From positions 1-64,000 of IMG/VR virus record IMGVR_UViG_3300021255_000128: a stretch of DNA of 64,000 nt. The stretch is one strand, 5' to 3'. The notes beneath the pieces were generated by a model. The model was not told where the DNA came from, did no database searches, and was given only the letters and a program-made list of their open reading frames with translations. This stretch comes from a virus (lineage: Duplodnaviria; Heunggongvirae; Uroviricota; Caudoviricetes). Below, piece after piece: positions 28,565 through 45,871 of the stretch. How positions within the stretch are numbered: position 1 is the stretch's first letter; the number at the start of each line of letters is the position of its first letter. The position numbers and the translations under genes were made by a program.

Positions 28565-28576
28565 ATATAATACAAA

Positions 28577-28619: not shown

Positions 28620-28625
28620 TTTATT

Positions 28626-29345: not shown

Positions 29346-29956
29346 AAGTTTATGTAGTTGGTCCTGCAACACACTATACAAACTTTATGTCGAATGTAGA
29401 ATTAACAGACGATATAAAAAAGGCAAAAGTAATTCTTTTTACAGGTGGAGAAGATGTAGATCCATCTATCTACGGTAAAAGAAAACATCCAGAAACGCAT
29501 AGTAATCTTAAACGAGATCTTAAAGAAAAAGAAATCTTTGAAAAGATTCGTCCTGATCAACTAGCTGTGGGAGTCTGCCGTGGATCTCAGCTTCTCTGTG
29601 CTTTAAATGGTGGAAATCTTGTTCAGGATTGTAGTGGACACGCACTATATACAACACACCCTATCTATAGTTTTGAAGGAGACATGGTCTATGAAATAAC
29701 GTCTACACATCATCAGATGCAATATCCTTTTGATTTACCTAATAATGAATATCAAATTTTGTATTATGGTGTAGATGGAAGAGATTTTCGAGGTGATGGT
29801 ATTGACAGTAGATATTTAAATGGATGTAATCCCGAAATTGTTTTATACAAAAGACCTGGATTACCTAAATGTCTTGCAATTCAAGGACATCCTGAAATGA
29901 TTCCAAATAGTCCTGTTGCAAAAATGTTAGATAAATTAATCAAATCATTATGTTAA
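29342..29956 (+). CDS. class-I glutamine amidotransferase-like / peptidase C26 (gamma-glutamyl hydrolase-like)
   Basis: Nucleophile elbow GVCRGSQLL and C-terminal QGHPE (His-Glu) motif typical of GATase1/C26. Confidence 0.65.
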   Translation: MKVYVVGPATHYTNFMSNVELTDDIKKAKVILFTGGEDVDPSIYGKRKHPETHSNLKRDLKEKEIFEKIRPDQLAVGVCRGSQLLCALNGGNLVQDCSGHALYTTHPIYSFEGDMVYEITSTHHQMQYPFDLPNNEYQILYYGVDGRDFRGDGIDSRYLNGCNPEIVLYKRPGLPKCLAIQGHPEMIPNSPVAKMLDKLIKSLC

Positions 29957-30741: not shown

Positions 30742-30743
30742 AA

Positions 30744-32015
30744 ATGTGTGGAATATTTGGTATTGTTAGAGAACATCCTGCACAATTTGATTATTCTACG
30801 TTTTGCACACTAGGTATTGCCAACGATTCAAGAGGTGGTGATTCATGTGGTGTATTTATTGATGGAAGTGTTGAGTATGGTATAAAAGATGAGAAGTTAT
30901 TTCAAGACTTTTTTACAAAGAGTGTAGTTTTACAAAATACACATTATTCAACAATTGCATTAGGCCATTGTAGAAAAGCTTCGATCGGAGCAATTAATAT
31001 GAGCACCGCTCAACCAGTTGTAATACAAAATGAAAATAATGAAACTGAATTTGTAGTTCTTCATAATGGAACTATTCATAACTATCAAGATCTTGCTGAA
31101 AAGTATATTCCTGATGTAGACATTAAAGGAATGACTGATAGTCAAGTAATGGCTAGGATCTTCTATTATAAAGGTTATGATGTTCTTGAAGAATATACAG
31201 GTGGTGCTGTATTTTTCATTGTAGATTATCGTGAAGATAAGCCGAGAATAATGTTCTTTAAAGGTGCTTCTAAGAAATACATTAGTGATTTGGAGCTTAC
31301 TGAAGAACGTCCATTATACTTCTGTATTACAGATGATGAAATGGTGTTTTCATCAATTCCCTCATACTTATTAGCACTTCGACCTGATGCAATTTTGTAT
31401 ACTCCTGCAGAAAATGTTCTTGGCGAATTCAAAAACGGAAAACCTGTTGCTATTAAAAAGTATGATCGTAGTGACTGTTTACAACAGAAACTAGGAGGTT
31501 ATTATAATACAACACCTGTAGCAAAATATATGGATTATTTGATGTATAATGCTAATGGATGTTTTCATACAGTTTCCTTCAAAAGAATTAGTGGTGAATA
31601 CTTTATATCAAGTTGGGGTGGTGTATATGAAGGTAAACCTGGTTATTTAGCAACTGAAAAGTTATATCTATTTAACGGTATTCCATTTTTTGATAAGAAA
31701 TATTATGATTTTGTATGTAAATATTTCAGGAAGTCAAATAAAGATATAGATGAATTTACAAAAGACAATGAATACTTAATTAGATATTTAAGTGTTTATC
31801 GTTTATATGTAAAGGATGGAGTTTTATATCTTTTAAAGGAACCTGATATATTAGAACCGTATACGGGTGATTTATCTCCTATTGGGGGTACCAGAACAAG
31901 AAAATATAAAAACGGAACATTTGTTTGTGAGATATATGAACCATATCATCACCCAACAAATAATAGCGTTACAGAAGTAAACTTAAAAGCACTTAAAAAC
32001 TTATGGAAGCTATAA
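30744..32015 (+). CDS. class-II (Ntn) glutamine amidotransferase domain protein with unknown C-terminal domain
   Basis: N-terminal MCGIFG with catalytic Cys2 and a GAT-II-like core. No PP-loop SGGxDS seen, so not asparagine-synthase or QueC-like. Confidence 0.65.
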   Translation: MCGIFGIVREHPAQFDYSTFCTLGIANDSRGGDSCGVFIDGSVEYGIKDEKLFQDFFTKSVVLQNTHYSTIALGHCRKASIGAINMSTAQPVVIQNENNETEFVVLHNGTIHNYQDLAEKYIPDVDIKGMTDSQVMARIFYYKGYDVLEEYTGGAVFFIVDYREDKPRIMFFKGASKKYISDLELTEERPLYFCITDDEMVFSSIPSYLLALRPDAILYTPAENVLGEFKNGKPVAIKKYDRSDCLQQKLGGYYNTTPVAKYMDYLMYNANGCFHTVSFKRISGEYFISSWGGVYEGKPGYLATEKLYLFNGIPFFDKKYYDFVCKYFRKSNKDIDEFTKDNEYLIRYLSVYRLYVKDGVLYLLKEPDILEPYTGDLSPIGGTRTRKYKNGTFVCEIYEPYHHPTNNSVTEVNLKALKNLWKL

Positions 32016-33232
32016 ACGAGTTTACTGGATTAAAAATCTCTAGTCGAATTGTTCGATTTGTAACAGACATTGTAGAAAATATTCTAATTTATGGATATAC
32101 AAATTCATCTAAAGATTTAAGTGAGGGGTTGTTTATCATGGCTGATGGAAACTCTGTCACATCATATTATGATCCTAATCACTTACACTTAGATTGGAGT
32201 CCATATTTTCAGAAGTATTACTGTCTTTTATATGATTGTAAAGATAATCCCAGTTTCTTAATTGATGTATCTAAGTCATTAAAACCTGGAGTATACAGTT
32301 ATTCCTTTGAACGAAAATACGAAGCTGTTCAAAACTTTAAATTGTTTGATAATAAACAATTGAAGATTGAATCGGAAGAATTTCCTATCGCAAAGCATGT
32401 TAAACGTACAATTGGAATAGAATTTGAAACATCTTTGGGATATATTTCAGAAAGAGACTGTTTTAATTATGGATTAATTCCATTAAGAGATGGTTCTATT
32501 TCAGGAATTGAATATTCAACTGTTATATTACAAGGAAACTCCGGATTTAATCTTTTAAAGAAACAGTTAGATTTACTTCGAAATTATACTCATTTTAATA
32601 AAGAGTGCTCACTTCATATTCATTTTGGTAATTTCCCTCTTGATGTAACCAAGATATCTCGACTTTACTCAATATTGTTGAGAATTCAAGACCAGATGGA
32701 ATGGTATGTTCCAGCATTAACATTCCGTACAAATGAATATAAAGCAAATGGAAAATCTTATTGTAAGAAATTGCCTGAATTTGCTAGCTTTGATCAAATG
32801 TTTTATAATTTTACAAGTATGGCATTTTTCGGGAGTTTTGTACAACCACATCCAGATGATTTAACTAGAACTCATAAGTGGAATGTTCACTCTCGTTATT
32901 ATTGGTGTAATTTTGTAAATCTTCTGTGCTACAATGTTAATAAGACAGTAGAGTTTAGATTTTTACGTCCAACTTATAATCTTGAGAAGATATTGACTTG
33001 GATTTATATTCTTAATGGTATTTTAACTTATGCGGAAGGTAACGGTAAAATACAGGGTATTGATTTAAAATATATCTTGAATTCTGTTTATCCTACTGAT
33101 ACTGCAAACATACTACATTATGAATGTACAAAGTTAGTATCTCTTCAGAAAGCTCAATATGATAATGGCGATTTGATTGGTGCAGATCTTACGTTAGAGA
33201 ATAGATTTTTTGAATCTAATAAAATTATTTAA
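32003..33232 (+). CDS. putative amidoligase (Amidoligase_2/GCS2-like)
   Basis: TIGIEFET, RDGSISGIEYST, ECSLHIHFG and TVEFRFL motifs resemble glutamine-synthetase-like COOH-NH2 ligases. Confidence 0.5.
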   Translation: MEAINEFTGLKISSRIVRFVTDIVENILIYGYTNSSKDLSEGLFIMADGNSVTSYYDPNHLHLDWSPYFQKYYCLLYDCKDNPSFLIDVSKSLKPGVYSYSFERKYEAVQNFKLFDNKQLKIESEEFPIAKHVKRTIGIEFETSLGYISERDCFNYGLIPLRDGSISGIEYSTVILQGNSGFNLLKKQLDLLRNYTHFNKECSLHIHFGNFPLDVTKISRLYSILLRIQDQMEWYVPALTFRTNEYKANGKSYCKKLPEFASFDQMFYNFTSMAFFGSFVQPHPDDLTRTHKWNVHSRYYWCNFVNLLCYNVNKTVEFRFLRPTYNLEKILTWIYILNGILTYAEGNGKIQGIDLKYILNSVYPTDTANILHYECTKLVSLQKAQYDNGDLIGADLTLENRFFESNKII

Positions 33233-33254
33233 TATGTACTGATTTTGATAGTAT

Positions 33255-33305
33255 AGCGCATCGTTTTATGGTAACTTTAAGAGGTTCGAATCCTTTGATG
33301 CGCTC
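33255..33305 (+). ncRNA. mini tRNA-like element (acceptor-like stem enclosing a T-arm-like hairpin; no anticodon arm)
   Basis: AGCGCATC ... GATGCGCT 8-bp stem. Internal AGAGG-TTCGAAT-CCTTT. Confidence 0.35.
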
Positions 33306-33322
33306 TAATTTATTTTATAATT

Positions 33323-33592
33323 ATGGAAAAAAGTATGTTTTTTAAAGCGGGACTTATAATAGTCTTACTTTTGGTAATTTGTTATTGTATTGCAATCCCT
33401 ATTGTAAAAGAAAGAGAAAAAGCTTCTCAATTTTATAACGTTGTATATCATACCGGTGATATAAGTATTGAATACAACGATGTAACAAACCTATATTATG
33501 ATAAAGTTGGAATATATTTTACAACTTGTGATAGTACAACTGTTATATTAAGTGGAGGAGCTGTTGAGATTATACCTTTAGATTTAGATTAA
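33323..33592 (+). CDS. small membrane-anchored protein
   Basis: N-terminal hydrophobic helix. Confidence 0.4.
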   Translation: MEKSMFFKAGLIIVLLLVICYCIAIPIVKEREKASQFYNVVYHTGDISIEYNDVTNLYYDKVGIYFTTCDSTTVILSGGAVEIIPLDLD

Positions 33593-33594
33593 TT

Positions 33595-34209
33595 ATGATA
33601 ACAAAATTTAGTGGAAATAATTTATTTCTGACTTCAGATACACATTTCGGACATCAAAATATCCTTAGATTATGCGAACGTCCGTTTGATACAATAGAAG
33701 AACACGATCAAAAACTTATTGAAAATTGGAATTCTGTTGTAGGTCCAGAAGATACTGTATTCCATCTTGGAGATTTCTGTTTTGGTGGAGCTCAAAAATG
33801 GAAAGAGATACGTGACCAATTAAATGGTCATATAATTCTTATCTTGGGTAATCACGACATTAAGAATGCATCTCAAGGTATGTTAACGATGTTTGATTAT
33901 GTGTCCCAACAAATGCGAATTCAAATAGATGGTAGGAATGTTTATTTGAATCATTTTCCGTTTCTAACATTTGCTCATTGGAATCCAGAGGTGTATCAAC
34001 GTGATGCATTAACTTTTGCACTTTCTGGACATACTCATATTCGTAAGGGTAATACCGGATTTGATGCACAATTCACTTCTTTATATAAACCTACGCAATA
34101 TGATGTAGGTGTTGATTTAAATGATTACAAACCTGTTCCTTGGAAAGAGGTTAATAGGCGAATTCAATATCAAATAGATCATCATTGTAATTTGACTAAT
34201 TGGATGTAA
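33595..34209 (+). CDS. calcineurin-like metallophosphoesterase
   Basis: SDTHFGH, GDF and GNHD motifs. Confidence 0.7.
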   Translation: MITKFSGNNLFLTSDTHFGHQNILRLCERPFDTIEEHDQKLIENWNSVVGPEDTVFHLGDFCFGGAQKWKEIRDQLNGHIILILGNHDIKNASQGMLTMFDYVSQQMRIQIDGRNVYLNHFPFLTFAHWNPEVYQRDALTFALSGHTHIRKGNTGFDAQFTSLYKPTQYDVGVDLNDYKPVPWKEVNRRIQYQIDHHCNLTNWM

Positions 34210-34646
34210 TTATGACCCAAGAAGAGAAAGAATTATTATTTAAAGATCTTTGTGCAAGATTACCTTATGGAGCTAAAGGATTACATAGAGGACAGGTTCA
34301 TGAACTTTTTACTATTGATGGTAGAGAAGTAAATAGTGCTTGTATACAAGTGGACGGTTATGATGCCTGGTTTCCTGTAGAAACATTCATACCATATCTT
34401 CGTCCAATGTCAAGTATGACTGAGGAAGAAAGAAAAGAATATGAATCATTTTTTAGTATTGGTGAATATTCTTGTGGAGGCTCTCTTTATGGAGAAGAAT
34501 ACGAATACATCAATGATGATTATGACGATATAATGCAATCAGTATCCTTGATAGATTGGCTTAATGCTCATCATTTCGACTATCGTGGATTGATTGAGAA
34601 ATCGTTGGCTATAATTGCTCCAGTAGATATATATAAAACTGAATAG
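34200..34646 (+). CDS. hypothetical acidic protein
   Basis: 148-aa ORF. Confidence 0.45.
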   Translation: MDVIMTQEEKELLFKDLCARLPYGAKGLHRGQVHELFTIDGREVNSACIQVDGYDAWFPVETFIPYLRPMSSMTEEERKEYESFFSIGEYSCGGSLYGEEYEYINDDYDDIMQSVSLIDWLNAHHFDYRGLIEKSLAIIAPVDIYKTE

Positions 34647-34648
34647 CT

Positions 34649-34864
34649 ATGATTAATAAGTTAACTCAAAGACACTGTTATGATAGTGTTGAGGATTACA
34701 AAAACTATGTAATCAAATGCCCATGTTGTGAAACTATCATGAATTTTGGAAAAGATGATGTATATAAAGATGAAGATGATATGTGTATTCATCATGAATA
34801 TATAGATTGTCCAGAATGTAATGAAAAGATTCAATTGGATGATGATTTTTATTTTGGATATTAG
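34649..34864 (+). CDS. small zinc-ribbon protein
   Basis: CPCC ... CPEC Cys pairs. Confidence 0.45.
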   Translation: MINKLTQRHCYDSVEDYKNYVIKCPCCETIMNFGKDDVYKDEDDMCIHHEYIDCPECNEKIQLDDDFYFGY

Positions 34865-34866
34865 AT

Positions 34867-35280
34867 ATGATTGTCGAAGATTACGTCTCTTTTGAAACCG
34901 CCAAATTATTGAAAGAGAAAGGGTTTGACTCTGAAAATGTAAGCGAGTTTGGCGGTTACTATTTTGATTACAATCATAACGGACAAAATGTGGGAATTGT
35001 TAATGAATCAATGATGCTTAATAAAACCCTTGAAGATTGGGAGTATTTACGTCCCACTCTCCAAATGGCAATGAAATGGTTGAGAGAAGTGTACAATGTC
35101 TTTATTGATATATCATCACGATTTTCTAAAAATGCAGATAAGGATGTGTGCTTCTCATATAGTTGTAAAAAACTTATAAGCACATATAAAAGCTCTTATG
35201 AAATTGGAGATGGAGAATGGCCGAATTATGAAGAAGCTTGTGAAGCTGCGATTAAATATTGTCTTGAAAAATTAATTTAG
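34867..35280 (+). CDS. hypothetical protein
   Basis: 137-aa ORF. Confidence 0.45.
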   Translation: MIVEDYVSFETAKLLKEKGFDSENVSEFGGYYFDYNHNGQNVGIVNESMMLNKTLEDWEYLRPTLQMAMKWLREVYNVFIDISSRFSKNADKDVCFSYSCKKLISTYKSSYEIGDGEWPNYEEACEAAIKYCLEKLI

Positions 35281-35282
35281 TT

Positions 35283-35654
35283 ATGACACGAGAAGAAGCA
35301 AGAAAACATCTTATAGACTGGATTAACTATGTTAATGATCCGAGCCTAGTAGCATTTATAAACGAACCGTGTAGTAGTGAGGAAATTTTAGAAGCTATGA
35401 TAATCGATGCAGAAGCTCTCTCTCAATATTCCCTTCCTGAAGATCTTGATGAAGCGGCAAATAGTTATGCTTCCAAAACAGAGTGTGCTGTTGTTGCGTG
35501 TAGAGGTTTTAAAGCTGGAGCTAAGTGGATGGCGTGGCAGGGATATATAAAAGAAGGAATTGCACGTCCAGATGATCGCGAAATCTGGGTTGATCTTACT
35601 GATACCGATATTAAAGATGGTGATAAAGTAATAGTTCAAATCCGAAAGAAATAA
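35283..35654 (+). CDS. hypothetical protein
   Basis: 123-aa ORF. Confidence 0.45.
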   Translation: MTREEARKHLIDWINYVNDPSLVAFINEPCSSEEILEAMIIDAEALSQYSLPEDLDEAANSYASKTECAVVACRGFKAGAKWMAWQGYIKEGIARPDDREIWVDLTDTDIKDGDKVIVQIRKK

Positions 35655-35656
35655 GC

Positions 35657-35839
35657 TATGAGTAACAATCCATACAAAGACTACTATGATGCTATGTCCA
35701 GCGGTGATGAATGGGCCGGCATTCGGGCAGTAAAAGCATCAAAAAGAATTAAGGAAATTAAAGAAATTGCTTCATGGAATGGTATCTCCGAAGAAGCAGT
35801 AATGGCCCAAATGTCAAACAACGAAATGGGAGGATAATA
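35657..35839 (+). CDS. hypothetical small protein
   Basis: 60-aa ORF (MSNNPYKDYYDAM...) found by hand translation. Not in the ORF track. Confidence 0.35.
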
Positions 35840-36453
35840 TGAAAATACCATTTGATATCAAATACCGTGACAAGATTGAGTCCGGTAAGTATAAGGTGAA
35901 GACCAGAGATGGATGTCCAGTAAGGATTATTTGTTGGGACAGAGTAGACGTTCAACCTGTTGTTGCCCTAATTAGTGGCAAAGACGGAACAGAATTTACC
36001 GGTGAATTCACGATAGAAGGAAACTATTGGCTAAGCAAAATGGAATCTCATAAAGATCTTTTCGTCGTAATCCAAGATCCTGAGATGAGCAAGTTTGAGA
36101 AGGCAGTATCAAAATATCGTCCTCAGTCAGATACTTTGGAAACCATTCAACGCATTGCCGCTGAACTTCTTTCCCTTGCACGGAATGAATTTAATAAACA
36201 GATAGAGAACGATTATCGAGAAATTATTCACAATGCCTATGAAAAAGGTAAAACTGATACCTTGAGGGACTTGCCGAGGTGGAAGATTTGGAGTAATGGT
36301 GCCTGTGGGAATAGTGAAGGGTATCCAATTGCACTTGTTCATCGAGGTTGTGGATTTAATTTAGTCAGTACCCTTGGTATTGACGGAGAGAAGTACATAA
36401 TGCTTTCTGATCTTGAGAAATTACCCGGATTTAAGGAGGAAAACCATGAGTAG
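35839..36453 (+). CDS. hypothetical protein
   Basis: 204-aa ORF. Confidence 0.5.
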   Translation: MKIPFDIKYRDKIESGKYKVKTRDGCPVRIICWDRVDVQPVVALISGKDGTEFTGEFTIEGNYWLSKMESHKDLFVVIQDPEMSKFEKAVSKYRPQSDTLETIQRIAAELLSLARNEFNKQIENDYREIIHNAYEKGKTDTLRDLPRWKIWSNGACGNSEGYPIALVHRGCGFNLVSTLGIDGEKYIMLSDLEKLPGFKEENHE

Positions 36454-36664
36454 AGCAGAAGACGCAGCATTTAAGGCTGAATCTGGAACATCTTATAGCG
36501 AACGTGTTTATCGCGATGCTTTTCTTGATGGCTATGAGCAGTCCAATAAAGACGTCATATCCCTCATCGAATCCCGCATCGGAGAAATCCTGGGGGATGC
36601 CCAGCCAGCTCCGGTCTTAAGAGCAGAATTAAGAGAACTGATCAATAAAATCAAAGAGAAATGA
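36450..36664 (+). CDS. hypothetical small protein
   Basis: Start refined to MSRAEDAA. Confidence 0.4.
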
Positions 36665-37089
36665 AAGCAAAATTATTAAACCATCTCACTGTTGGCATGC
36701 TCAATATAGTTGGCGACTATGGACATGTTATTCCAGACGAAGAAGTCGAGGTGTTGTGTGGTCCGTTCATATCGACAATCGGTAATTCTCCGATGCTTGC
36801 TTGGTGTCTTTGCGAAGCGAAAGATGGACGTAAATACTACATAGAAGCGACAAATCTTCAAAAGTTAGAACCTTCACTGGAAGATTGGACAAAAGGTGTC
36901 GGGAAGATATTCTCCACACCTGTCGATTTGGACGCTTTTCGCAGGGAGGCGGCTAAAGACATACTTGCAGGATTTGCCGGATCAGTAATGAGGGATGATG
37001 AAATTCTTGAAGATAAAACGGTCAAAGACCTCGTTAAAACTGCGGTAATGTGGACCGACGAACTAATCAAACAGCTTAAAGAAAAATAA
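36661..37089 (+). CDS. hypothetical protein
   Basis: 142-aa ORF. Confidence 0.45.
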   Translation: MKAKLLNHLTVGMLNIVGDYGHVIPDEEVEVLCGPFISTIGNSPMLAWCLCEAKDGRKYYIEATNLQKLEPSLEDWTKGVGKIFSTPVDLDAFRREAAKDILAGFAGSVMRDDEILEDKTVKDLVKTAVMWTDELIKQLKEK

Positions 37090-37597
37090 TTTTTTTATTT
37101 CAATCTTTTTAGTTATATTTGTATGAATTTTTCAACGTTTTCTAAATCGTCATTAATAGCATACCTTAAATATTTTACAACAATGCTATGTCATAAAGAA
37201 GACAAAAATGTAATTAACTTTTTAGAAGATTGTAAAAAAGAATTAAGTAAAAGAAATTAACCTGGCAAGGTTGCATACGTTCAATAGCGTATTATGTTTA
37301 AAACCATTCCGTAGTATAATCAACACAATATTGTTGAGGACGTAAGCCAGACAACGGAAAAAAGGGCTATAATAAGAGTAGAAACCTGAGCCCTTGAACC
37401 TGACTCGCTGGAGGGAGTACGTACGGGAAACCTCAAAACTTTAATCCAGTTGAAAGGTGACAGACCACGGGGTAATTCCCTAGGAGTGCAGTAGACTACT
37501 AAACGTTTTAACTGGTGTGTATGGGACTGGGTAGACCATACTCCGTAATTATTGTAAATCGGACGTAATATCAGACCGCGTAAGAGTCTGGTTTTAA

Positions 37598-37682
37598 CTC
37601 CCAGTGGCGCAATTGGCGAGACGCGCATGTCTTAGGAACATGTACATTAGAAACACTGTAAGTCCGAATCTTACCTGGGAGA
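37598..37682 (+). tRNA. tRNA-Leu (anticodon TAG), type II
   Basis: Acceptor CTCCCAG/CTGGGAG-A, D GCG-CAATTGGCGAGA-CGC, anticodon stem CATGT/ACATG with loop CTTAGGA, long variable arm, T GTAAG-TCCGAAT-CTTAC. Confidence 0.7.
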
Positions 37683-37697
37683 CAAATATTTAATAAT

Positions 37698-38318
37698 ATG
37701 AAAATAGTTGATAATTTTGATCTCTTTCGAGAGAAAATGAATTGGAATTCACCCGATGAATTCTATTTCGTACAAATTCTTATTAGAGGAAAAGATGGAC
37801 ATACGGAACCAGGAGTAAATGGGAATAATAAGAATAGATTGATTAAGATTTATACGGTTAGATCTTTAGAGGATTTAAATAAGTTTGAACCTGAAATTAA
37901 ATCTATTTGTGAAGCCATTAATGGGAGAGCGTATATCCATCCTACTAAAAGGAGTTTTAATGAAGTTGCAGATGAATGTTTACGTGTAACTACTGATGTT
38001 TATCTTTCTAAAACAAATAATGTAGGATTAAAAGCAGCATATTCTACAGCTTGCGGAAAATCATTTATATCATCTGATAAGAAATTTATTATTGATTTGG
38101 ATGACGACGATGTTAATAAAAAAGATGAAATTATTGAATTTATAGAATATCATTGTGAACCATTTAATTGTATAAAATATCAATATGATGTTCCAACTGC
38201 ACACGGTATTCATTTAATAACGCGTGCGTTTAATCGTCAGAAATTTTGTGAGCATTTTCCAGGAATAGATGTTCATACAAATAATCCGACATTGCTATAC
38301 TTTAAATGTTTAAATTAA
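37698..38318 (+). CDS. hypothetical protein
   Basis: 206-aa ORF. Confidence 0.5.
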   Translation: MKIVDNFDLFREKMNWNSPDEFYFVQILIRGKDGHTEPGVNGNNKNRLIKIYTVRSLEDLNKFEPEIKSICEAINGRAYIHPTKRSFNEVADECLRVTTDVYLSKTNNVGLKAAYSTACGKSFISSDKKFIIDLDDDDVNKKDEIIEFIEYHCEPFNCIKYQYDVPTAHGIHLITRAFNRQKFCEHFPGIDVHTNNPTLLYFKCLN

Positions 38319-38759
38319 TCTCCTAACAATATAAGGCACTTACAATACAAAATTGCTATTGATTCGATCAATTACTTAATATTTAACAACTCTATGCTGG
38401 TCATAGCGTGCGACACGCGTTAGTTTCCGTATCTAAAATACGTTATTTAAGTGGCTTGTAAGTGAAAAGTAACTTTCAGTGCCTTTTTAGATTTATTTTA
38501 ACAATATTTTTAAATCAAATGCCTAAGGTATCTGATTATGAACTTGAACATTTATCTGATAATGAATCTAATTTTCAGAAAGTTCGTAGTAAAAAACCTA
38601 AATCTTTAAAAGAACCAAAATACCCGGATAAAAAGAAAAATCGGGAAAAGAAAATTGACTTTTGAGATTTAGAAGAAAAAGAGTTTTAAAAGTTAATGAT
38701 ACATACAAATAAAAATCATTTATATTGCATTAATATTACTTGATTTGTATCATAAATAT

Positions 38760-38831
38760 GTGGTTGTTACGCCAGTGGTAAGCGGACAGATTGTGGCTCT
38801 GTTGAGATCGGTTCGATTCCGATACAATCAC
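38760..38831 (+). tRNA. tRNA-His (anticodon GTG) with G-1
   Basis: Extra 5' G pairs with discriminator C. Anticodon stem ACAGA/TCTGT with loop TTGTGGC. T ATCGG-TTCGATT-CCGAT. Confidence 0.75.
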
Positions 38832-38853
38832 CCAATCATTAAATTAAAGTTAT

Positions 38854-39135
38854 ATGTTTGAAAAAATAAAAAATATATTTAAATATAAAGAACCTGTAAA
38901 ATCTACACCTCTTAAAACATTGAGAGATGTAGATTTTTTTGATACTGTTTGGGTTAAAGATAAATCTGGAATTGTTTATGAAGGTTGGATTTATGATAAG
39001 ACTAGAAAGCATCTTATCGTAACAGCTGTTACAGAGGAAGGTATATATAAAGACTATCGATTTATTACAAATAAATGTAATAGAACTGTAACAGAAATTG
39101 AACAAAATCATAATATTTTATATTTTAACAAATAA
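38854..39135 (+). CDS. hypothetical small protein
   Basis: 93-aa ORF. Confidence 0.4.
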   Translation: MFEKIKNIFKYKEPVKSTPLKTLRDVDFFDTVWVKDKSGIVYEGWIYDKTRKHLIVTAVTEEGIYKDYRFITNKCNRTVTEIEQNHNILYFNK

Positions 39136-39326
39136 TGGTTGCTGGAGACATTGTATACTTTCCATATAAAAATGGATTTATAAGATATAAAATTAGAAAA
39201 ATTATGGAAGACACTTTATTAGTACTTACATATAAAAGTGATGTAATGAATTGTATTCCTATTGATGATGTATTAACAACAGAACAATTTACAAAAATAT
39301 ATAAAAATGAAAAAATCTATGAGTAG
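39135..39326 (+). CDS. hypothetical small protein
   Basis: 63-aa ORF. Confidence 0.35.
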   Translation: MVAGDIVYFPYKNGFIRYKIRKIMEDTLLVLTYKSDVMNCIPIDDVLTTEQFTKIYKNEKIYE

Positions 39327-40407
39327 TTTTGATAGGTATTACATATCTCCTGCATTAGTTTCTGATATAGAACATCGCTCAGAGTGTGTACCTTATTATA
39401 ACGCTTTTTATTCTGATGAACAAGGTGGTTGGTGTTTAAGTGGAGCTCATCTTCCAATCTTTGTTGCACCAATGGCATGTATTATTGATGAACATAATTA
39501 CATGAAATTTGATAATGAAGGATTAAATCCAATTATTCCAAGAACTGTTGATTTTCAGAAGAGACTTGAAATAATGAAACAGATGATTTGGATTGCTGTT
39601 GGATTAGATGAATTGGATTGGATTATTGATAATTATGAGCATTTTGATTCAGAGGTTTATATTTGTGTGGACATTGCAAATGGGCACATGAGAAAACTTC
39701 TTGATAAATGTAAGCAAGCAAAGCTTAAATTTGGACAAAATCTAAATTTAATGGCTGGTAATATTGCAAATCCATATACATATATAGAATATGCGAAAGC
39801 TGGCATTGATTATGTTAGATGCACTATTGGTGATGGACAAGCTTGTGCTACTGCTGATCTAACAGGAATTAGTCAGAATACACCAGAATTTATTAATGTT
39901 ATTAAAAAAATTAAAACATCGATTACAGAAAATTTTATAGAAAATAAAGAATATCTTTCTATTCCTAAAATTGTAATTGATGGCGGTATTTCTAAAATTA
40001 GAGACATTGTTATTGCCCTTGCCCTTGGTGCTGATTATGTAATGTGTGGAAAGATTTTTGCTCAATCTGAAGAAGCTTGTGGAGAAATCTTTGAAAAATT
40101 AATACCTGTAACAAGAGAGGAAATTTGTGATACATGTATTCCGAAAAAGATTAATACAGTAACTGTATCAGAATGGATTCCTGGAAGAATGTATTATGGA
40201 ATGTCTACACAGCGCGCTCAAAAAGAAATGGGAAACAAGCGATTAAAATCTTCTGAAGGTTATGAATATTGGGTTCCTATTGAATATAAACTTTCGGATT
40301 GGGTAAAACAATTTGTTGATGTGATAGCTTCTACAATGAGTTATTGTAATTGTACTCAACTTGGAGAATTTATTGGAAAAGTCGCTTGGCTTGAATATAA
40401 AAAATAA
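39307..40407 (+). CDS. IMP dehydrogenase/GMP reductase family TIM-barrel protein (GuaC-like)
   Basis: VDIANGH (cf. DTAHGH), catalytic-loop-like TIGDGQACATADLTG, and IVIDGGISKIRDIVIALALGADYVMCG (cf. IADGGI..GDI.KALAAGA..VM.G). Confidence 0.6.
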   Translation: MKKSMSSFDRYYISPALVSDIEHRSECVPYYNAFYSDEQGGWCLSGAHLPIFVAPMACIIDEHNYMKFDNEGLNPIIPRTVDFQKRLEIMKQMIWIAVGLDELDWIIDNYEHFDSEVYICVDIANGHMRKLLDKCKQAKLKFGQNLNLMAGNIANPYTYIEYAKAGIDYVRCTIGDGQACATADLTGISQNTPEFINVIKKIKTSITENFIENKEYLSIPKIVIDGGISKIRDIVIALALGADYVMCGKIFAQSEEACGEIFEKLIPVTREEICDTCIPKKINTVTVSEWIPGRMYYGMSTQRAQKEMGNKRLKSSEGYEYWVPIEYKLSDWVKQFVDVIASTMSYCNCTQLGEFIGKVAWLEYKK

Positions 40408-40464
40408 ATTTGGAAAATTAAAATATTTTTCGTAACTTTGTTTTATGATACTTATAATCCTAAT

Positions 40465-40544
40465 TAATTGTTGGTTCGAATCCAACTTCTGCTTTATCTT
40501 AGCTGAATGGCGAAATTGGTTTACGCGAATGACTTGAAATCATT
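40465..40544 (+). ncRNA. second candidate permuted/split tRNA (T arm plus acceptor 3' strand, then acceptor 5' strand, D arm and anticodon arm with loop CTTGAAA)
   Basis: GTTGG-TTCGAAT-CCAAC-TTCTGCT-T (40470-40494), a 6-nt spacer, then AGCTGAA-TG-GCG-AAATTGGTTTA-CGC-G-AATGA-CTTGAAA-TCATT. The acceptor strands pair 6/7. No T arm follows the 5' half and no 5' half precedes the 3' half. Confidence 0.35.
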
Positions 40545-40620
40545 TTTTATTAATAAGTATCATTTAAAAATAACTGTTTGTCTCAACAGTAAAATGAGAT
40601 GTTAGCATTCATAGTGTTCC

Positions 40621-40660
40621 TCAACGCAATGCGCATTAAAGCGTTGAGGAATTTTCTATG
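40621..40660 (+). other. strong hairpin (9-bp stem CCTCAACGC/GCGTTGAGG) upstream of an HNH gene
   Basis: Inverted repeat read from the sequence. Terminator or processing-site candidate. Confidence 0.4.
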
Positions 40661-40699
40661 AAGAAGAAAGAGACTTATTAAATAATTAAATTGTTATGA

Positions 40700-41563
40700 A
40701 TGTTAACAAAAGATGATTTAACTCCAGAATTATTACAAAAAGAATTTGATTCTGGACTTTGACACATTGAAATAGGAGAAAAATATCATGTGTCATCAAG
40801 AACTATTTATGATTACGTTAAGAAATGAAATCTAAACGTTCCTCGTAAAAATAAAAAGAAAGAGGTTATAAAATTTGTATGTAAAAATTGTGGCAAAGAA
40901 TTTACTAAACTTGAACCAGAGGGTATTTGTTGAAACTGTAAACAAAAAAGAGATACTTTAGTAAACCAAGTACCTATTGAAAATAATAGTAATAGTAAAT
41001 ATCTTACAAATGTTTTAAAATTAAGAGCTGAAGGTTTATCTTATAAAAAGATTGCTGAAAAACTTGGGTGTAGTACATCAACGATATCTTATTTGTTATC
41101 AGATAAAACTAGAGAAAAACGCAAAGTACGATTAGAAAAATATAAAGACAATTGATATTTTTATTTAAAAAGACGTTTATCTGATTTTAGAACTAGAACT
41201 CCTGGCAATAATGTGACAATTAAGTGTGTCGATTGAAAAATAAAATTACAAAAAGGAATACAACGATTTAAAAATAGAAATAATATTATGCCTACGACAA
41301 ATTTTACATACAAAGATGTTCTTGATAAATTTGGAACAGTTGTTCAATGTGAACTAACCGGTAGAACAATTGATTTAACCAAAGATGATTACAATATTGA
41401 TCATATTATACCAGTTTCAAAAGGTGGTACAAATAATTTAGATAATTTAGCTTTTACCACTCCTGAAGCAAATGCTGCCAAAAATGGGCTTACCAATGAA
41501 GAGTTTGTAGCATTATGTAAAGAGGTTTGTGAACATTTTGGGTATACGGTAGTAAAAAATTAA
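40700..41563 (+). CDS. HNH endonuclease with HTH domain and 6 in-frame TGA codons
   Basis: LuxR/sigma-like HTH LSYKKIAEKLGCSTSTISYLL. HNH DHIIPVSKGGTNNLDNLAFTTPEANAAKNG. The frame is continuous only if TGA is sense. Confidence 0.7.
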
Positions 41564-41580
41564 TATAACATAAAAATATT

Positions 41581-41657
41581 CGTCTTGTCGTCCAATGGAA
41601 TTAGGACAGCTGTCTTCAAAATAGCCAATCAGGGTTTGAGTCCTTGCAAGACGACCA
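41581..41657 (+). tRNA. opal suppressor tRNA (anticodon TCA, reads UGA); Trp-like; CCA encoded
   Basis: Acceptor CGTCTTG/CAAGACG-A-CCA, D GTCC-AATGGAATTA-GGAC, anticodon stem GCTGT/ATAGC (one G-U) with loop CTTCAAA, T CAGGG-TTTGAGT-CCTTG. Confidence 0.75.
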
Positions 41658-41670
41658 TTAAAGTAATAAT

Positions 41671-42141
41671 ATGCCTGTAAATTACGATCAAAAATATAAA
41701 GAATTAACGAGTGGTCTTTTAAAATGTGTAGAACCATTGTCGGATAAATATTCCGAACTGTCTGGATTTGAGAAATGTGTTATAGTACTTAGATTAAATG
41801 AATATTCATACAGGGATATTCAATTAAAATTAGGAATGCCCGCTAAAAAATTAATTCGAGAAGTATTATTGAAAGTAAATCCAGAATTAATTAATACAGA
41901 ACAATTAAGAAAAATAAGAACTACTCCTGAATTACGAATCAAAGGAATTCTTGAAGCAAATAATGTTTGGGAATTTGATTTGGATGAATTTGGTGAATCT
42001 GTATTTGAAATAAAAAATGGTGAATTGTGGTTCACTGATGAATCAGGTTATTCATCTAAAATTAAAGGATATGATGAAAGAACTCAAAGGAGTATTCTAA
42101 AAAATATTAGTGATATTTTACATCTTGGAATTGAAGTTTAA
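41671..42141 (+). CDS. hypothetical protein
   Basis: 156-aa ORF. Confidence 0.5.
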   Translation: MPVNYDQKYKELTSGLLKCVEPLSDKYSELSGFEKCVIVLRLNEYSYRDIQLKLGMPAKKLIREVLLKVNPELINTEQLRKIRTTPELRIKGILEANNVWEFDLDEFGESVFEIKNGELWFTDESGYSSKIKGYDERTQRSILKNISDILHLGIEV

Positions 42142-42316
42142 TATGGAAATTTTATTTATTTATTCGATTCCTTGTATCATAAGTTTTTTACTTATGAATC
42201 AATGTTATAAGAAAAAATTGTTAGATTATCCAATGCTTTCTGCATTAAGTTGTATTATTCCTTTTGTAAATTGGATTGGATTAATATGTTTTATATGTAA
42301 ATTAATAAATGGTTAA
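42110..42316 (+). CDS. small membrane protein
   Basis: Hydrophobic. Confidence 0.4.
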   Translation: MIFYILELKFNMEILFIYSIPCIISFLLMNQCYKKKLLDYPMLSALSCIIPFVNWIGLICFICKLING

Positions 42317-43895
42317 TGAATTAAAGTTTGGGAAATATGCGAAAGATTCTCTTCTAGCAGGAATGTCAAAAATTGCTGAAGCAGTTGGATCAACTCTTGG
42401 TCCAAAAGGAAAATGTGTAATTCTCGATAATTATTCTAACGGTCTTCCACATGTGACTAAAGATGGAGTCACAGTTGCAAAAAATATTTTTCTTGAAAAT
42501 AAATTTGAAAATGTTGGTGCAACTTTACTAAAACAAGCTGCATTAAATACCGTACGCTCTGTTGGTGATGCAACTACATCTTCAACAGTTTTAGCATATA
42601 AGATGGTAGCTAATGCATACCCAATGCTTGAAGGACACAATTTGTCGTTAATTAAAAAAGGTATATCTAAAGCAGCAACCCACGTTCAAGAAACTATTCA
42701 AAATTCTTCAATGCCTGTTAATTGGGAGGAATTAGAAAAAATTGCAACAATTTCTGCAAATAATGATATAGAAATAGGAAAAATTGTAGCAGATGCTTTT
42801 AATAAAGTTGGATTGGATGGTGTAATTACGGTTGAAGAATCTCCAAACAATAAAACAACAATTGATATTATTAATGGTATGCAATTTGATCGAGGGTTTG
42901 AATCACACTGGTTTATTACAGATAAATCTAAGGGCGAATGTGTTCTTGAAAATCCATTAATTCTTATAACTGATCAAAAAGTACAATTAACTAGAGAAAT
43001 TCTTCCTGCTGCAGAATATTGTGCAAAAAATGGCAGAGCCATGTTAATTATTGCACAAGATTTCGATGATGAAGTTGTTCAAAATCTTCGAATAAATCAT
43101 CTTCAAGGAAATATTAAATGTTGTCTTGTAAAAGCACCATCGTTTGGAGATTATAGAAAATATGTTTTAGATGATTTAGCATTACTTACAAATGCAAAAT
43201 TAGCTACATATGACAATGGAATCGAACTACAAAAAGTAGACGGTTCTATGCTTGGATCTTGTGGTAAAGTAGTAATTACTAAAGATTCTACTACAATTTT
43301 AAACGGTGCTGGTGATGCAAAACTTATAGCAGAACGAGTTTCAGAAATTAAAACTCTTTTATCAACACTTCAATCTGGAGAAGAAGTTTTACAAAAATTT
43401 CATAAAGAACGTATTGCTCGTTTAGTTGGTGGAATTTGTTCAATTAAAGTTGGAGCTACTTCTGAACTTGAAATGAAAGAAAAGAAAGATAGAGTTGATG
43501 ATGCTGTTTGTGCAACAAGAGCTGCTTGTGAAGAAGGTATTGTTCCTGGTGGAGGAATTACATTTATGAAGGCATTTTTAACTATGCCTACAAGTGATGT
43601 TCGTGATGAACAGATTGGAATAGATATTATTAAAAACGCATTAACATCTGTATTTGATAAGATTGTTGATAACGCAGGTTACAATCCAAGAGAAATTGGA
43701 CAACAAGTATATCCTGAAGATAATATATCTTGGAATGCTGATACAGAAAAATATGAAAACTTCCTTGATGCTGGAATAATTAATCCTGCTAAGGCTGACA
43801 GACTTGCATTTGAAAATGCAATAGGTGTACTAAATATGTTTATTTCTACTAATTGTATAATTACAGAAAAAGATGTGTTTGCAGAAATTAAATAA
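42309..43895 (+). CDS. groEL-like: GroEL-like chaperonin (Cpn60 family)
   Basis: N-terminus aligns motif-for-motif with GroEL (KFG..A..LL.G...AEAVGSTLGPKG..V.LD......P.VTKDGVTVAK.I.LE.KFEN.GA.LLK). Length 528 aa. Confidence 0.85.
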   Translation: MVNELKFGKYAKDSLLAGMSKIAEAVGSTLGPKGKCVILDNYSNGLPHVTKDGVTVAKNIFLENKFENVGATLLKQAALNTVRSVGDATTSSTVLAYKMVANAYPMLEGHNLSLIKKGISKAATHVQETIQNSSMPVNWEELEKIATISANNDIEIGKIVADAFNKVGLDGVITVEESPNNKTTIDIINGMQFDRGFESHWFITDKSKGECVLENPLILITDQKVQLTREILPAAEYCAKNGRAMLIIAQDFDDEVVQNLRINHLQGNIKCCLVKAPSFGDYRKYVLDDLALLTNAKLATYDNGIELQKVDGSMLGSCGKVVITKDSTTILNGAGDAKLIAERVSEIKTLLSTLQSGEEVLQKFHKERIARLVGGICSIKVGATSELEMKEKKDRVDDAVCATRAACEEGIVPGGGITFMKAFLTMPTSDVRDEQIGIDIIKNALTSVFDKIVDNAGYNPREIGQQVYPEDNISWNADTEKYENFLDAGIINPAKADRLAFENAIGVLNMFISTNCIITEKDVFAEIK

Positions 43896-44604
43896 ATACG
43901 ATGTTTATGCAACATCGGATTTACATGGAATTCTACCAAAAATAGATACTCCTTTTGATTTATTACTTCTTGCAGGAGATTTAGTGAATCTTTATATGCA
44001 AAGAGATATGGGAGATACTATAGAATGGTATGAAGGTCCATTTGTAAATTGGATTAATACTCTTCCATTTAAAGATGAAAGCGGTAAAGTTCTTTGGATT
44101 GCGGGAAATCATGAAGTTGGTTGGGAAAAACTTGTTCCAGAAGGAAGAAGAAAAATTGCAAACCATATGACAGAATTAACTAATGGTAGAGCAATTTATC
44201 TTGAAGACGATTTATACGATTTTAATGGTATAAAAGTGTATGGAACACCATGGTGTAAAATCTTTGGAAATTGGGCATTTATGAAAAATGAGGACGGTTT
44301 AAAAGAAGTTTATTCTCAAATTCCAGAGGATGTAGATATTCTTTTAACACATGATGCTCCATACGGAACTTCAGATTTATGTTTTGAATGGATAGCTTGG
44401 GGAAAAACTCCATATCACATAGGTAATAAACCACTAAGAGATATAATTATTGAAAAATGTCCTGATTTTAATTTACATGGACATCTTCATTCAGCAAATC
44501 ATGCTGAAGAAGTACTTAATAATACTAAAGTTTTTAACGTTAGTTTAGTTGATGAAGCTTATAAGGAGGCATATTCTCCTTTATATCTAGAAATAATAAA
44601 ATAA
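43873..44604 (+). CDS. calcineurin-like metallophosphoesterase
   Basis: SDLHG, AGDLV, GNHE and GHLH motifs. Confidence 0.7.
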   Translation: MCLQKLNKYDVYATSDLHGILPKIDTPFDLLLLAGDLVNLYMQRDMGDTIEWYEGPFVNWINTLPFKDESGKVLWIAGNHEVGWEKLVPEGRRKIANHMTELTNGRAIYLEDDLYDFNGIKVYGTPWCKIFGNWAFMKNEDGLKEVYSQIPEDVDILLTHDAPYGTSDLCFEWIAWGKTPYHIGNKPLRDIIIEKCPDFNLHGHLHSANHAEEVLNNTKVFNVSLVDEAYKEAYSPLYLEIIK

Positions 44605-44609
44605 AAATT

Positions 44610-44966
44610 ATGGGTATTAAGTATTATTATTCCGCTCCGACACAGATTCGGTGCGGATTTTTTATCGCAGATGCAGAAGGTAATTGGCTTAATGATCTTC
44701 CCATTAAGTCCATGTTAGTGAAAAACCTTCCTAGAGTTGTTATTTGTAGCATTCTTGATGGAAATAAGCTTTCCTTTGGATTTGCTACATGTTCAAGTAA
44801 AGAACAATATTGTAAGAAACGTGGGCAACGTATTGCTTATGCACGTGCTATTGGAAAACCTTACAAAGTTGTAGAACTTGAAGACATTAAAACAATTCAC
44901 GATGTTTCTGCTCAAGTAATAGATGAGATTTTTGATCTCGAAACAAAGCGCATTTACGGAGTTTAA
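44610..44966 (+). CDS. hypothetical protein
   Basis: 118-aa ORF. Confidence 0.5.
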   Translation: MGIKYYYSAPTQIRCGFFIADAEGNWLNDLPIKSMLVKNLPRVVICSILDGNKLSFGFATCSSKEQYCKKRGQRIAYARAIGKPYKVVELEDIKTIHDVSAQVIDEIFDLETKRIYGV

Positions 44967-45104
44967 TGTTTCACATAATAATTCGTGGTAAAATTGAATC
45001 TGAAAATAAAGAATTTGCAGAAGAATTAGATAAATTTATATCTGAACATAATAAACTTGATGGAAAGATATATGTTTATGAAATATCTAAAATAAAATCA
45101 GAAA

Positions 45105-45497
45105 ATGATTAAAATTGAAGAGAGATATATACCTATTTACCATCAATTAGTTTATTTTATATTAGGTGATCCGTATGAGGTTCAAGATTATCTTACAGAT
45201 GTGTATAGGGATAATTTTGAATTTAATCCTCAAACAGCCAATGCTGTAGTATTACATAATCATTTAACCAGTTGAATTTGATTTGATCATAAGAATATTA
45301 CAGTTCCTATAATAGCTCATGAATTAGATCATGCTGTATTTGATTTAATGATAGATCTTGGCTTAGAGTTAACAGATCAAGAAGCATTTTGCTATTTAGA
45401 TGAATGATTAATGGAACAATGTGTAGATATATTTGTTATACAGATGGCTCCTATCAATCTAGTAGAGGATCAGGAGGATGAGCAAGCATCATCTTAG
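45105..45497 (+). CDS. putative zinc metallopeptidase (HExxH) with 3 in-frame TGA codons
   Basis: IIAHELDHAVFDL. ORF is continuous only with TGA as sense. Ends at TAG. Confidence 0.45.
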
Positions 45498-45871
45498 ATG
45501 AAAATGAACAAGTTATAACAAAATTATATCAGGGTAAAACCCATACAACAAATAATCGTATGGAATTAACAGCTGTTCTTGAAACATTAAAATATTTTAA
45601 AGAGCCAACTGATATAACAATTGTTTCAGATTCACAATATGTAATCGGAGGAATTAATGGTTCTGCTAAAAAATGAATCGAAGATTCTGATTTAACTAAA
45701 AAGAATTTAGATCTTTGGTTTCAAGTTGTTGAATTACTTGAAAAACACAAAGTTACAACAATTTGAACCAAAGGTCATATTGGAAACAAATGAAACGAAG
45801 AAGCGGATCGTTTGTGTGTGTTTGCAGCACAATGTTATAATTTAGAGAGAGATGTATGAACTATCGAATAA
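45419..45871 (+). CDS. rnh: ribonuclease H (RNase HI-like), 4-5 in-frame TGA codons
   Basis: MCRYICYTDGS...GSGG(W)ASII, TAVLETL, SDSQYV, DLWF, TTI(W)TKGH, NEEADRL. TGA falls where E. coli RNase HI has aromatic or Trp residues. Confidence 0.8.

Follow-up and report, generated by a model that had tools for sequence, protein, structure and literature searches.

A 77-nt transfer RNA (tRNA) with the anticodon UCA is encoded at positions 41581-41657 of a 64,000-nt stretch of viral DNA, IMG/VR record IMGVR_UViG_3300021255_000128 (the whole stretch is called the window below; an extended survey added the 10 kb to its left and right, for a total of 84 kb). We conclude that this tRNA is probably the phage's own decoder of UGA, reading TGA as tryptophan (Trp) in a genome with two coding dialects and in a host that uses the standard code. 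A first-pass annotation had named it as the decoder of TGA codons that lie in frame at Trp-fitting positions of many window genes, and this role holds up: it is the only UCA tRNA to be seen, and it occupies a slot in which relatives of the phage keep one as well. The further claim that the recoding system is self-contained goes too far, since no gene for a tryptophanyl-tRNA synthetase (TrpRS), for release factor 1 (RF1) or another release factor, or for a countermeasure against release factor 2 (RF2) was seen in the 84 kb. Because a TrpRS gene is lacking there, charging presumably depends on the host enzyme. The phage is a further example of published TGA-to-Trp recoding, with a few unusual details; opal-suppressor tRNAs and such recoding are established for the Zeta crAss-like phages (PMC12386605; Yutin et al. 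2021, PMC7886860).

ARAGORN called a tRNA at exactly 41581-41657 on the plus strand, with the anticodon tca at position 36 (T41616 C41617 A41618) and no different anticodon, and the Rfam tRNA model RF00005 matched the same interval with 50.7 bits (E = 6.5e-8 in a search of the whole window with all families). The sequence, CGTCTTG-TC-GTCC-AATGGAATTA-GGAC-A-GCTGT-CTTCAAA-ATAGC-CAAT-CAGGG-TTTGAGT-CCTTG-CAAGACG-A-CCA, has a cloverleaf as its minimum-free-energy fold, with stems of 7, 4, 5 and 5 bp, the D-loop AATGGAATTA, the anticodon loop CTTCAAA at 41614-41620, a variable loop of 4 nt and the T-loop TTTGAGT (U56). Its acceptor end consists of C1-G72, U5-A68, the discriminator A73 and an encoded CCA. 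When five syntenic canonical orthologs were compared, 15 of the 21 pairs covaried, pairing being kept despite changes on both sides. The clean cloverleaf with its CTTCAAA loop and encoded CCA, as it had been read from the letters, is confirmed. The gene lies, as also described there, between an HNH endonuclease gene and the next coding sequence, 17 nt past the stop of open reading frame (ORF) 40700-41563 and 13 nt ahead of the ATG of 41671-42141. Of the 19 tRNAs that ARAGORN reported in the window, all of them on the plus strand, no other has a UCA anticodon, and no further UCA tRNA was found within 10 kb on either side. Its nearest kin are the UCA tRNAs of two relatives, L098 and L100 (relatives are given here by such numbers); beyond its own orthologs the next nearest are phage tRNA-Arg(UCU) genes, weakly, and an exact search of IMG/VR with the anticodon arm gave five matches, none of them tRNAs. 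The same type of tRNA recurs in L193 with compensatory changes in the T-stem and a C19-G56 swap. Because L193 keeps this type with compensatory changes, the A73/CCA form appears to be under selection.

At the protein level, TGA is Trp in this phage. When TGA was taken as sense, the plus-strand ORF content rose from 12,602 to 16,681 amino acids. In order to see which residues the TGA codons correspond to, the window's DNA polymerase was used as a query with X placed at its ten TGA codons, and 116 homologs were aligned. Five columns of this alignment are at least 94% Trp, and all five are TGA in the window; columns 228 and 389 are Trp in 116 of 116 homologs. The other TGA columns hold Trp, Phe or Tyr, or are variable; Arg is found at position 40 in most homologs, and Gly at none of the ten. 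Since code 4 may already have been used in translating the database homologs, extra checks were made against standard-code proteins. The polymerase gene of the standard-code phage cr10_1 is free of in-frame TGA, and there Trp is encoded by TGG at three of the ten sites, while four sites are Phe or Tyr. In RNase H, of the four TGA sites that the alignment covers, three correspond to Trp residues of solved PDB structures. The codons that orthologs carry at the TGA sites of seven replication genes point the same way (TGA 186, TGG 48, TTT 28, TAT 21; n=326), and among the twelve commonest ortholog classes at these sites there are no Gly, Arg, Pro or Cys codons. The polymerase itself is probably of family B, according to a reading of its motifs by eye; Pfam gave no match.

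The recoding is not spread evenly over the genes. Among the 94 plus-strand ORFs, most use TGG without TGA, and 14 are TGA-rich (59 TGA vs 11 TGG). Twenty-six of the 37 informative genes are pure for one of the two codons, compared with an expectation of 8.2 and a maximum of 15 in 5000 shuffles. The TGA class comprises RNase H, a conserved 283-amino-acid protein, the polymerase, two helicases, the primase, and HNH, LAGLIDADG and other endonuclease-type genes; the TGG class includes GroEL, a peptidase, an exonuclease, an amidoligase/GATase/COOH-NH2-ligase cluster, phosphoesterases and an IMPDH-like enzyme (coordinates in Table 1). In the replication, late/lysis and homing-endonuclease genes TGA makes up about 85% of the Trp codons. 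The late/lysis-type genes lie on the minus strand just upstream of the window, where a 1370-amino-acid protein has 31 TGA codons and a phage lysozyme has a TGA/TGG count of 10/0. Within the early/accessory block that makes up the left part of the window, inserted endonuclease genes aside, only TGG is used and there is no internal sense TGA. Individual genes keep their class in the relatives, even where protein identity has fallen to 35-50%: orthologs of TGA genes are still TGA-rich at that distance, and of 158 ortholog comparisons made at codons of the TGG class, 96 show TGG, TGA being outside the twelve commonest classes. A stable avoidance of TGA in one gene class is hard to explain if the host reads TGA as Trp, and for this reason we infer a standard-code host.

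Some TGG-class genes carry a single TGA close to their end, 4-10 codons ahead of TAA or TAG (4693-5157, 15481-15696, 24316-25455, 36446-36679 and 38519-38689) or, in 58790-60199, up to 22 codons ahead. These are probably genuine stops followed by a backup, and read-through by the suppressor would add only a few residues.

Charging of the UCA tRNA with Trp is plausible, the proteins and not the tRNA being what speaks for it. Scored against Trp identity elements, as the first-pass annotation had proposed, the tRNA gave a divided answer. The anticodon determinants C35 and A36 and a pyrimidine at position 34 are present (U34 C35 A36), and bacterial TrpRS senses position 34 mainly by size. The bacterial acceptor set of G73, A1-U72 and G5-C68 is absent. 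A73 is found in the window and in L193, whereas the UCA tRNAs of L001, L002, L092, L098, L100 and L103 have G73, and the minor acceptor-stem elements are replaced by C1-G72 and U5-A68. With Bacillus subtilis TrpRS the penalty of a G73A change is only ~9-fold.

Several observations weigh against a Trp-inserting decoder at this locus. Its acceptor end is un-Trp-like for bacteria, and the canonical UCA tRNAs of relatives have G73; in addition, there is U56 in the T-loop, and a 3-nt insert in the D-loop includes A20, which we take to be an arginine identity element. The 31 TGA codons of one late gene would call for near-complete suppression, yet none of TrpRS, RF1 or an RF2 countermeasure was seen in the 84 kb, and the base that follows sense TGA is unbiased, with no sign of selection for weak termination contexts. 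About 84 of the ~176 kb of the genome were inspected, and a second decoder may exist elsewhere. Finally, recoded replication genes do not fit the simple 'late genes only' model of the literature, which makes the timing part of our model weaker.

These features invite other explanations. The UGA codons might be decoded with an amino acid other than Trp, such as Arg (A20, C35, A73) or one suggested by the Pro-like C1-G72/A73, or the gene might be a drifting copy whose functional counterpart lies elsewhere. The departure from every listed bacterial Trp acceptor determinant, the weak nearness of phage tRNA-Arg(UCU) genes, the Arg at polymerase position 40 and the partial coverage of the genome are all compatible with this, and tRNAscan-SE left the published suppressor of phage Lera undecided between Trp and Arg. 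We nevertheless find it unlikely, since TGA stands at the two invariant Trp columns of the polymerase and Arg, Pro and Gly codons are absent from the commonest ortholog classes. Moreover, the A73/CCA type is conserved in L193 in a way that suggests selection, the cost of G73A is small, and the tRNA sits in the decoder slot of its family with no competitor within 10 kb. A selenocysteine tRNA, or a tRNA-Gly(UCA) of code 25, would have the same anticodon, and ARAGORN labelled the gene 'tRNA-SeC', a label that reflects merely the anticodon under the bacterial code. Selenocysteine tRNAs have a long variable arm and extended acceptor and D stems; the 7/4/5/5 cloverleaf with its 4-nt variable loop has none of these. 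As for Gly, it occurs at none of the ten polymerase columns, no GGN codon is among the commonest ortholog codons, and the discriminator is A instead of the U73 of tRNA-Gly. With 59 TGA codons in 14 genes at Trp positions, both identities are ruled out by structure and alignments. It is just as hard to believe that the TGA ORFs are pseudogenes or assembly artefacts and the tRNA incidental, a possibility that the first-pass annotation had raised against itself. Code 11 does fragment these genes, and the JGI annotation divides the HNH gene beside the tRNA into 152 and 91 amino acids. However, the ORFs are free of TAA and TAG over 155-634 codons in DNA of 30% GC and encode complete domains (RNase H, PolB, DnaB, primase and HNH, essential replication genes among them), and their TGA positions are kept or swapped for TGG in orthologs on independent assemblies.

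A different challenge concerns the host, which might itself use code 4 (Mycoplasmatota-like), the UCA tRNA then being an ordinary extra tRNA-Trp and no suppressor. The low GC content of the window (32%), the preference for TGA over TGG in many genes (59 vs 11), as in Mollicutes, the failure to find an RF2 countermeasure in the 84 kb, and the fact that most genes need no TGA as a stop are what such a host would lead one to expect. We consider it quite improbable all the same, because a code-4 host gives no reason for ~60 genes to shun sense TGA, gene by gene across relatives (158 TGG sites). The nearest annotated polymerases are those of Crassvirales, and the published hosts of Zeta crAss-like phages are predicted to be standard-code Bacteroidales or Firmicutes. 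Promoter-like motifs argue in the same direction. The Bacteroidota consensus has TTTG near -33 and TAnnTTTG at -7 (PMC7366714), and the window contains 10 motifs of this type compared with 3.5 +/- 1.9 expected, a number that 0 of 100 shuffles reached. This enrichment points to a Bacteroidota host. Together with the conserved TGA-free gene class and the published host predictions, it suggests that the host uses the standard code. Motifs of this type precede the decoder slot, the tRNA array and several genes, and the one at 40409-40440, a predicted promoter, is positioned to transcribe a tRNA-like element, the HNH gene and the UCA tRNA. A scan for sigma-70 promoters in the window fell below the shuffled expectation and was uninformative. 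Individual TTTG-N18-22-TAnnTTTG motifs, about threefold enriched, were located at 1402, 2007, 2380 (minus strand), 9705, 19607, 19767, 40409 and 62312; they are mostly intergenic and correctly oriented, and several have an extended TTTGGAAAATTnAAAA box.

If the tRNA is a UGA decoder acting in a standard-code host, the recoding could work as follows. Host-type (Bacteroidota-like) promoters would probably drive the UCA tRNA along with the other phage tRNAs, and it would then be processed out of the HNH transcript. Host TrpRS would charge it, C35 and A36 being retained and U34 being a tolerated pyrimidine, and the charged tRNA would compete with RF2 at UGA. Early and accessory genes, by avoiding sense TGA, would be read in the same way under both codes; the replication, late/lysis and homing-endonuclease genes would be made only once the decoder is present. 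On this reading the HNH gene stands outside the decoding machinery and is a selfish, decoder-dependent endonuclease inserted between the tRNA-like element and the decoder.

The decoder slot itself is conserved, and its content is not. A conserved tRNA-like element precedes it, the GroEL region follows, and a UCA tRNA is found there in L001, L002, L098, L003, L193, L194, L196 and L198; the UCA tRNAs of L092, L100 and L103 lie upstream of the polymerase and were not mapped to the slot. At least four differing designs of UCA tRNA occur within the syntenic slot. One is a canonical class I tRNA with G73 (L098, with similar ones upstream of the polymerase in L092, L100 and L103). Another is Trp-like with two tandem anticodon-type arms, UCA and then CCA (L001, L002 and 15 more contigs), a third is non-canonical and mostly missed by tRNA finders (L003, L194, L196 and L198), and the fourth, with C1-G72, A73 and CCA, is that of the window and L193.

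The two-arm tRNA measures 93-97 nt (L001 9725-9817, L002 8264-8357, L168-L184) and is present in 17 IMG/VR contigs of 13-177 kb, most of them 100-177 kb. A1-U72 and G73 are found in 13 of 13 aligned sequences, and CCA is often encoded. Its first hairpin has the loop CTTCAAA (UCA), and the second, in the variable region, has CUCCAAA or GUCCAAA, the CCA loop of tRNA-Trp. The outer pairs of the second stem covary, one pair being changed on both sides in 10 of 13 sequences. The second arm may keep the anticodon determinant of TrpRS, or the RNA may fold in two ways; a limited literature search found no published description of such a tRNA. The non-canonical UCA tRNAs (L003 ~8190-8275, L194 2979-3053, L196 ~4880-4965, L198 ~4870-4955) have a 7-bp acceptor, a GTTY/RAAC D-stem, two added nt before the 3' acceptor strand and the discriminator C. 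Their 4-bp T-stem is CCTG/CGGG, reversed to CGGG/CCTG in L194. ARAGORN detects the L194 copy only and Rfam misses that of L003; this form could lie behind the 'missing' suppressor tRNAs of recoded phages.

The tRNA-like element is circularly permuted: within a 10-bp outer helix (ATGATACTTA/TAAGTATCAT), a T-arm is followed by a closed stem that resembles an acceptor, next by a D-arm and last by an anticodon-like arm that has a variable loop. Of the 32 pairs of its consensus fold, 8 are compensatory. No Rfam family matched it. It is also present in L001 (~9596-9722), L002 (~8136-8262), L098, L003, L193 and L194, always immediately 5' of the decoder slot and 3' of the promoter-like motif. The UCA tRNA follows it immediately in L001, L002 and L098; between the two lie a leader and the HNH gene in the window, and a GIY-YIG gene in L003.

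The HNH gene has five in-frame TGA codons, all upstream of the HNH motif, and no TGG; with five in-frame TGA, its translation needs the UCA decoder. The slot is polymorphic, being free of endonuclease genes in L001, L002 and L098 and occupied by a GIY-YIG gene in L003 and by HNH genes in the window, L193, L194, L196 and L198. A nuclease domain that is present or absent at one and the same site is what marks a free-standing homing endonuclease. Homologs of the HNH protein, at 49-98% identity, all lie in the same slot, each with a UCA tRNA 10-60 nt downstream. They came from a protein database search; a search of IMG/VR with the single HNH protein returned nothing close, probably because seeds that contain Trp miss TGA codons. 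The distribution of the HNH-tRNA unit conflicts with the backbone phylogeny: L001, whose GroEL is 87% identical to that of the window, is without it, and L193 (GroEL 73%) has an HNH gene at 79% identity together with the window's type of tRNA. L193 and L194 are 92-100% identical over most of the locus, apart from a patch of 52-81% identity that runs from the middle of the HNH gene to the 3' end of the tRNA, and the segment of the gene best conserved among the window, L193 and L194 is its 5' 200 nt. From this patch and the conserved 5' segment it appears that the decoder was exchanged as one with the gene's 3' half, and the pattern fits a free-standing homing endonuclease with co-conversion. 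A group I intron carrying the HNH gene inside the tRNA was rejected, since there was no Intron_gpI match at either the gathering or the E-value threshold and the downstream tRNA is complete.

The leader between the tRNA-like element and the HNH gene contains, besides its hairpin, a mini-ORF (40658-40681, MKKKETY) and a U-rich 3' tail. The hairpin shows compensatory changes between the window and L003, where the leader (7276-7405) stands upstream of the GIY-YIG gene; in L193 and L194 it precedes the HNH gene. It looks like a fixed expression or regulatory cassette for endonuclease ORFs that are swapped. We advance more tentatively, and with considerable doubt, the idea that the decoder slot is a homing-endonuclease battleground, in which an HNH family (GIY-YIG in L003) homes beside, needs and co-converts its own tRNA(UCA) allele. 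If this were true, it would explain why one slot holds at least four tRNA designs and why suppressor tRNAs escape detection in most recoded phages, and selfish endonucleases would be a vehicle that spreads a genetic-code change among co-infecting phages.

Compared to the published Zeta crAss-like phages (Lera, ct1yV3, c815351), the window phage is alike in genome size (~155-190 kb), GC (~30-35%), the 20-30 tRNAs near the genome start, TGA read as Trp, a UCA suppressor, many homing endonucleases and introns, and TGA in polymerase and endonuclease ORFs. The published phages come from the human gut and ours from the rumen, with a tRNA of the A73/C1-G72 type and an encoded CCA; and its whole replication module is recoded, whereas the Zeta papers stress late genes. 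The literature as a whole stresses late-gene recoding, with one example in which replication genes are not recoded (bioRxiv 10.1101/2021.08.26.457843; PMC12386605; PMC7886860), and TGA has also been described inside PolB and intron ORFs of Zeta phages (PMC12386605; PMC7886860). The code-4 phages that Borges et al. described from gut and rumen (the Agate, Jade and further clades; bioRxiv 10.1101/2021.08.26.457843) share a predicted standard-code host, a TGA suppressor tRNA and a recoding that is uneven across gene classes, with lysis genes strongly recoded. Jade phages carry TrpRS and RF1 genes, unlike the 84 kb surveyed here. The tRNA-Trp(UCA) of Mycoplasma and Spiroplasma likewise decodes UGA as Trp, and UGG too through wobble, in an AT-rich genome with a preference for TGA over TGG, but it is cellular and has the G73 of Trp acceptor identity, whereas the tRNA described here is viral, has A73 and belongs to a phage whose host probably terminates at UGA. 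Mycoplasma and Spiroplasma are not known to have RF2. SegB of phage T4 is reportedly a free-standing homing endonuclease in a phage tRNA cluster, lying between tRNA genes, variably present and with a co-inherited flanking tRNA. SegB is a GIY-YIG enzyme and the window's is HNH, with a GIY-YIG gene at the same site in L003, and the mRNA of the window endonuclease, with its 5 TGA codons, needs the neighbouring suppressor tRNA.

The case adds a rumen phage, probably a Zeta crAss-like one, to the recoded phages, and genomes of this kind need code-4 annotation. The split into two gene classes has persisted across long divergence and extends to the replication module, and this sets limits to models of how recoding governs the timing of gene expression. 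In structure the decoder varies, and at times standard tRNA finders fail to see it; it is also in genetic linkage with a homing endonuclease. All this offers leads on the evolution of suppressor tRNAs, on their charging (A73 vs G73, the extra CCA arm) and on their spread.

The DNA comes from a virulent-type phage of ~176 kb from the sheep rumen, similar to the Zeta crAss-like phages. Identical copies of window proteins are encoded on ENA scaffold ERZ28612978 (SHIW14-1…scaffold_63; 175,784 bp), and exact protein matches were also obtained on a Logan assembly of SRR873598 and on a JGI contig; the segment 40400-41700 (1301 nt) is 100% identical on three other public assemblies (ENA, Logan, JGI). 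That the DNA is from a phage is indicated by the GroEL PHROG, the phage lysozyme, the crAss-like polymerase and the many IMG/VR relatives of 145-177 kb. The DNA polymerase is 40-43% identical to Crassvirales polymerases, its nearest annotated relatives; a collection of annotated phages held neither near-identical DNA nor a close protein match, and tblastn with DnaB gave no useful taxonomy. Size (the 175,784-bp scaffold, within the 145-192 kb of the group), GC, the tRNA block near the genome start (19 tRNAs), opal recoding and the density of endonuclease-type genes (at least 6) are the grounds for the likeness to the Zeta group, and membership is likely; the genes on which a crAss phylogeny would be built (TerL, portal, MCP and the crAss-type RNA polymerase) are located beyond the surveyed 84 kb. 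Transcription of the window is almost wholly rightward.

Table 1. Features of the decoder locus and of the two codon classes in the window
Feature	Position	Strand	Basis
Early/accessory block, code-neutral, with 18 other tRNA genes	1..45403	+	Codon counts, ortholog alignments
HNH/NUMOD homing endonuclease, early region, TGA/TGG 4/1	9774..10790	+	Pfam I-HmuI_NUMOD-like; HNH motif in translation
Endonuclease-type gene inside tRNA array, TGA/TGG 2/0	22339-22809	+	HNH motif in translation
TGA-class ORF without family assignment, TGA/TGG 2/0	23488-23889	+	Codon counts
Endonuclease-type gene inside tRNA array, TGA/TGG 5/0	26553-27263	+	HNH motif in translation
Bacteroidota-type promoter-like motif, TTTG-N20-TAACTTTG	40409..40440	+	Enrichment; conserved in L003, L098
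Circularly permuted tRNA-like element, ~120 nt	40445..40563	+	Synteny, alignment, consensus fold
Leader of endonuclease insert: 9-bp hairpin (40619-40627 / 40641-40649), then AATTTTCT	40567..40699	+	Alignment
Free-standing HNH homing-endonuclease gene, 287 amino acids	40700..41563	+	Pfam HTH_23, HNH_4/HNH; codon counts
tRNA, anticodon UCA, 77 nt, proposed UGA decoder	41581..41657	+	ARAGORN, Rfam, cloverleaf minimum-free-energy fold, covariation
Coding sequence directly 3' of UCA tRNA, 156 amino acids, TGG only	41671..42141	+	ORF list; exact protein on 175,784-bp scaffold
GroEL, TGG only	42309-43895	+	PHROG chaperonin match
RNase H, TGA/TGG 5/1, first recoded replication gene, 3.7 kb downstream of tRNA	45404..45871	+	Pfam RNase_H 5e-31; orthologs TGA-rich
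Conserved 283-amino-acid gene, TGA/TGG 5/1	47152-48003	+	Codon counts
Probable family-B DNA polymerase, TGA/TGG 10/0	47987-49891	+	116 homologs; cr10_1; Crassvirales identity
DEAD/ResIII helicase, 4 TGA	50882-52033	+	Pfam Helicase_C; ENA gene calls; orthologs TGA-rich
189-amino-acid gene, TGA/TGG 3/1	52128-52697	+	ENA gene calls; translation
DnaB-type helicase, TGA/TGG 4/1	52697-53830	+	Pfam DnaB_C; orthologs TGA-rich
LAGLIDADG homing endonuclease, TGA/TGG 3/0	54926..56047	+	Pfam LAGLIDADG_3; codon counts
Toprim primase, TGA/TGG 4/1	57145..58149	+	Pfam Toprim_2; orthologs 3-6 TGA
GIY-YIG-like gene (by eye), TGA/TGG 4/3	63060-63584	+	Codon counts

A few further observations concern other parts of the window. 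Genes for a peptidase C26/GATase, a phiEco32-like COOH-NH2 ligase, a class-II-type amidotransferase and an amidoligase are clustered at 29342-33232, all of them TGG-only and near two metallophosphoesterase genes and the phage GroEL gene. The idea that a 606-amino-acid protein adjoining tRNA-like RNAs is a TROVE/Ro60 protein was dropped, as Pfam gave no match. Within the tRNA array, 21757-22182 (plus strand) matched the tmRNA model RF00023 with 33 bits (E = 7e-10), under the gathering score of 47, and ARAGORN reported no tmRNA in the window. A weak tRNA-like match at 23376-23465 (plus strand; 26.8 bits, below gathering) lies between a tRNA-Phe gene and a TGA-class ORF. Finally, a 115-nt tRNA-like gene at 16261-16375 (plus strand), missed by ARAGORN, scored 33.9 bits with the Rfam tRNA model; it has normal acceptor, D and T arms, G73 and ~40 extra nt around the anticodon and variable region, and its D-arm is similar to that of the UCA tRNA family.

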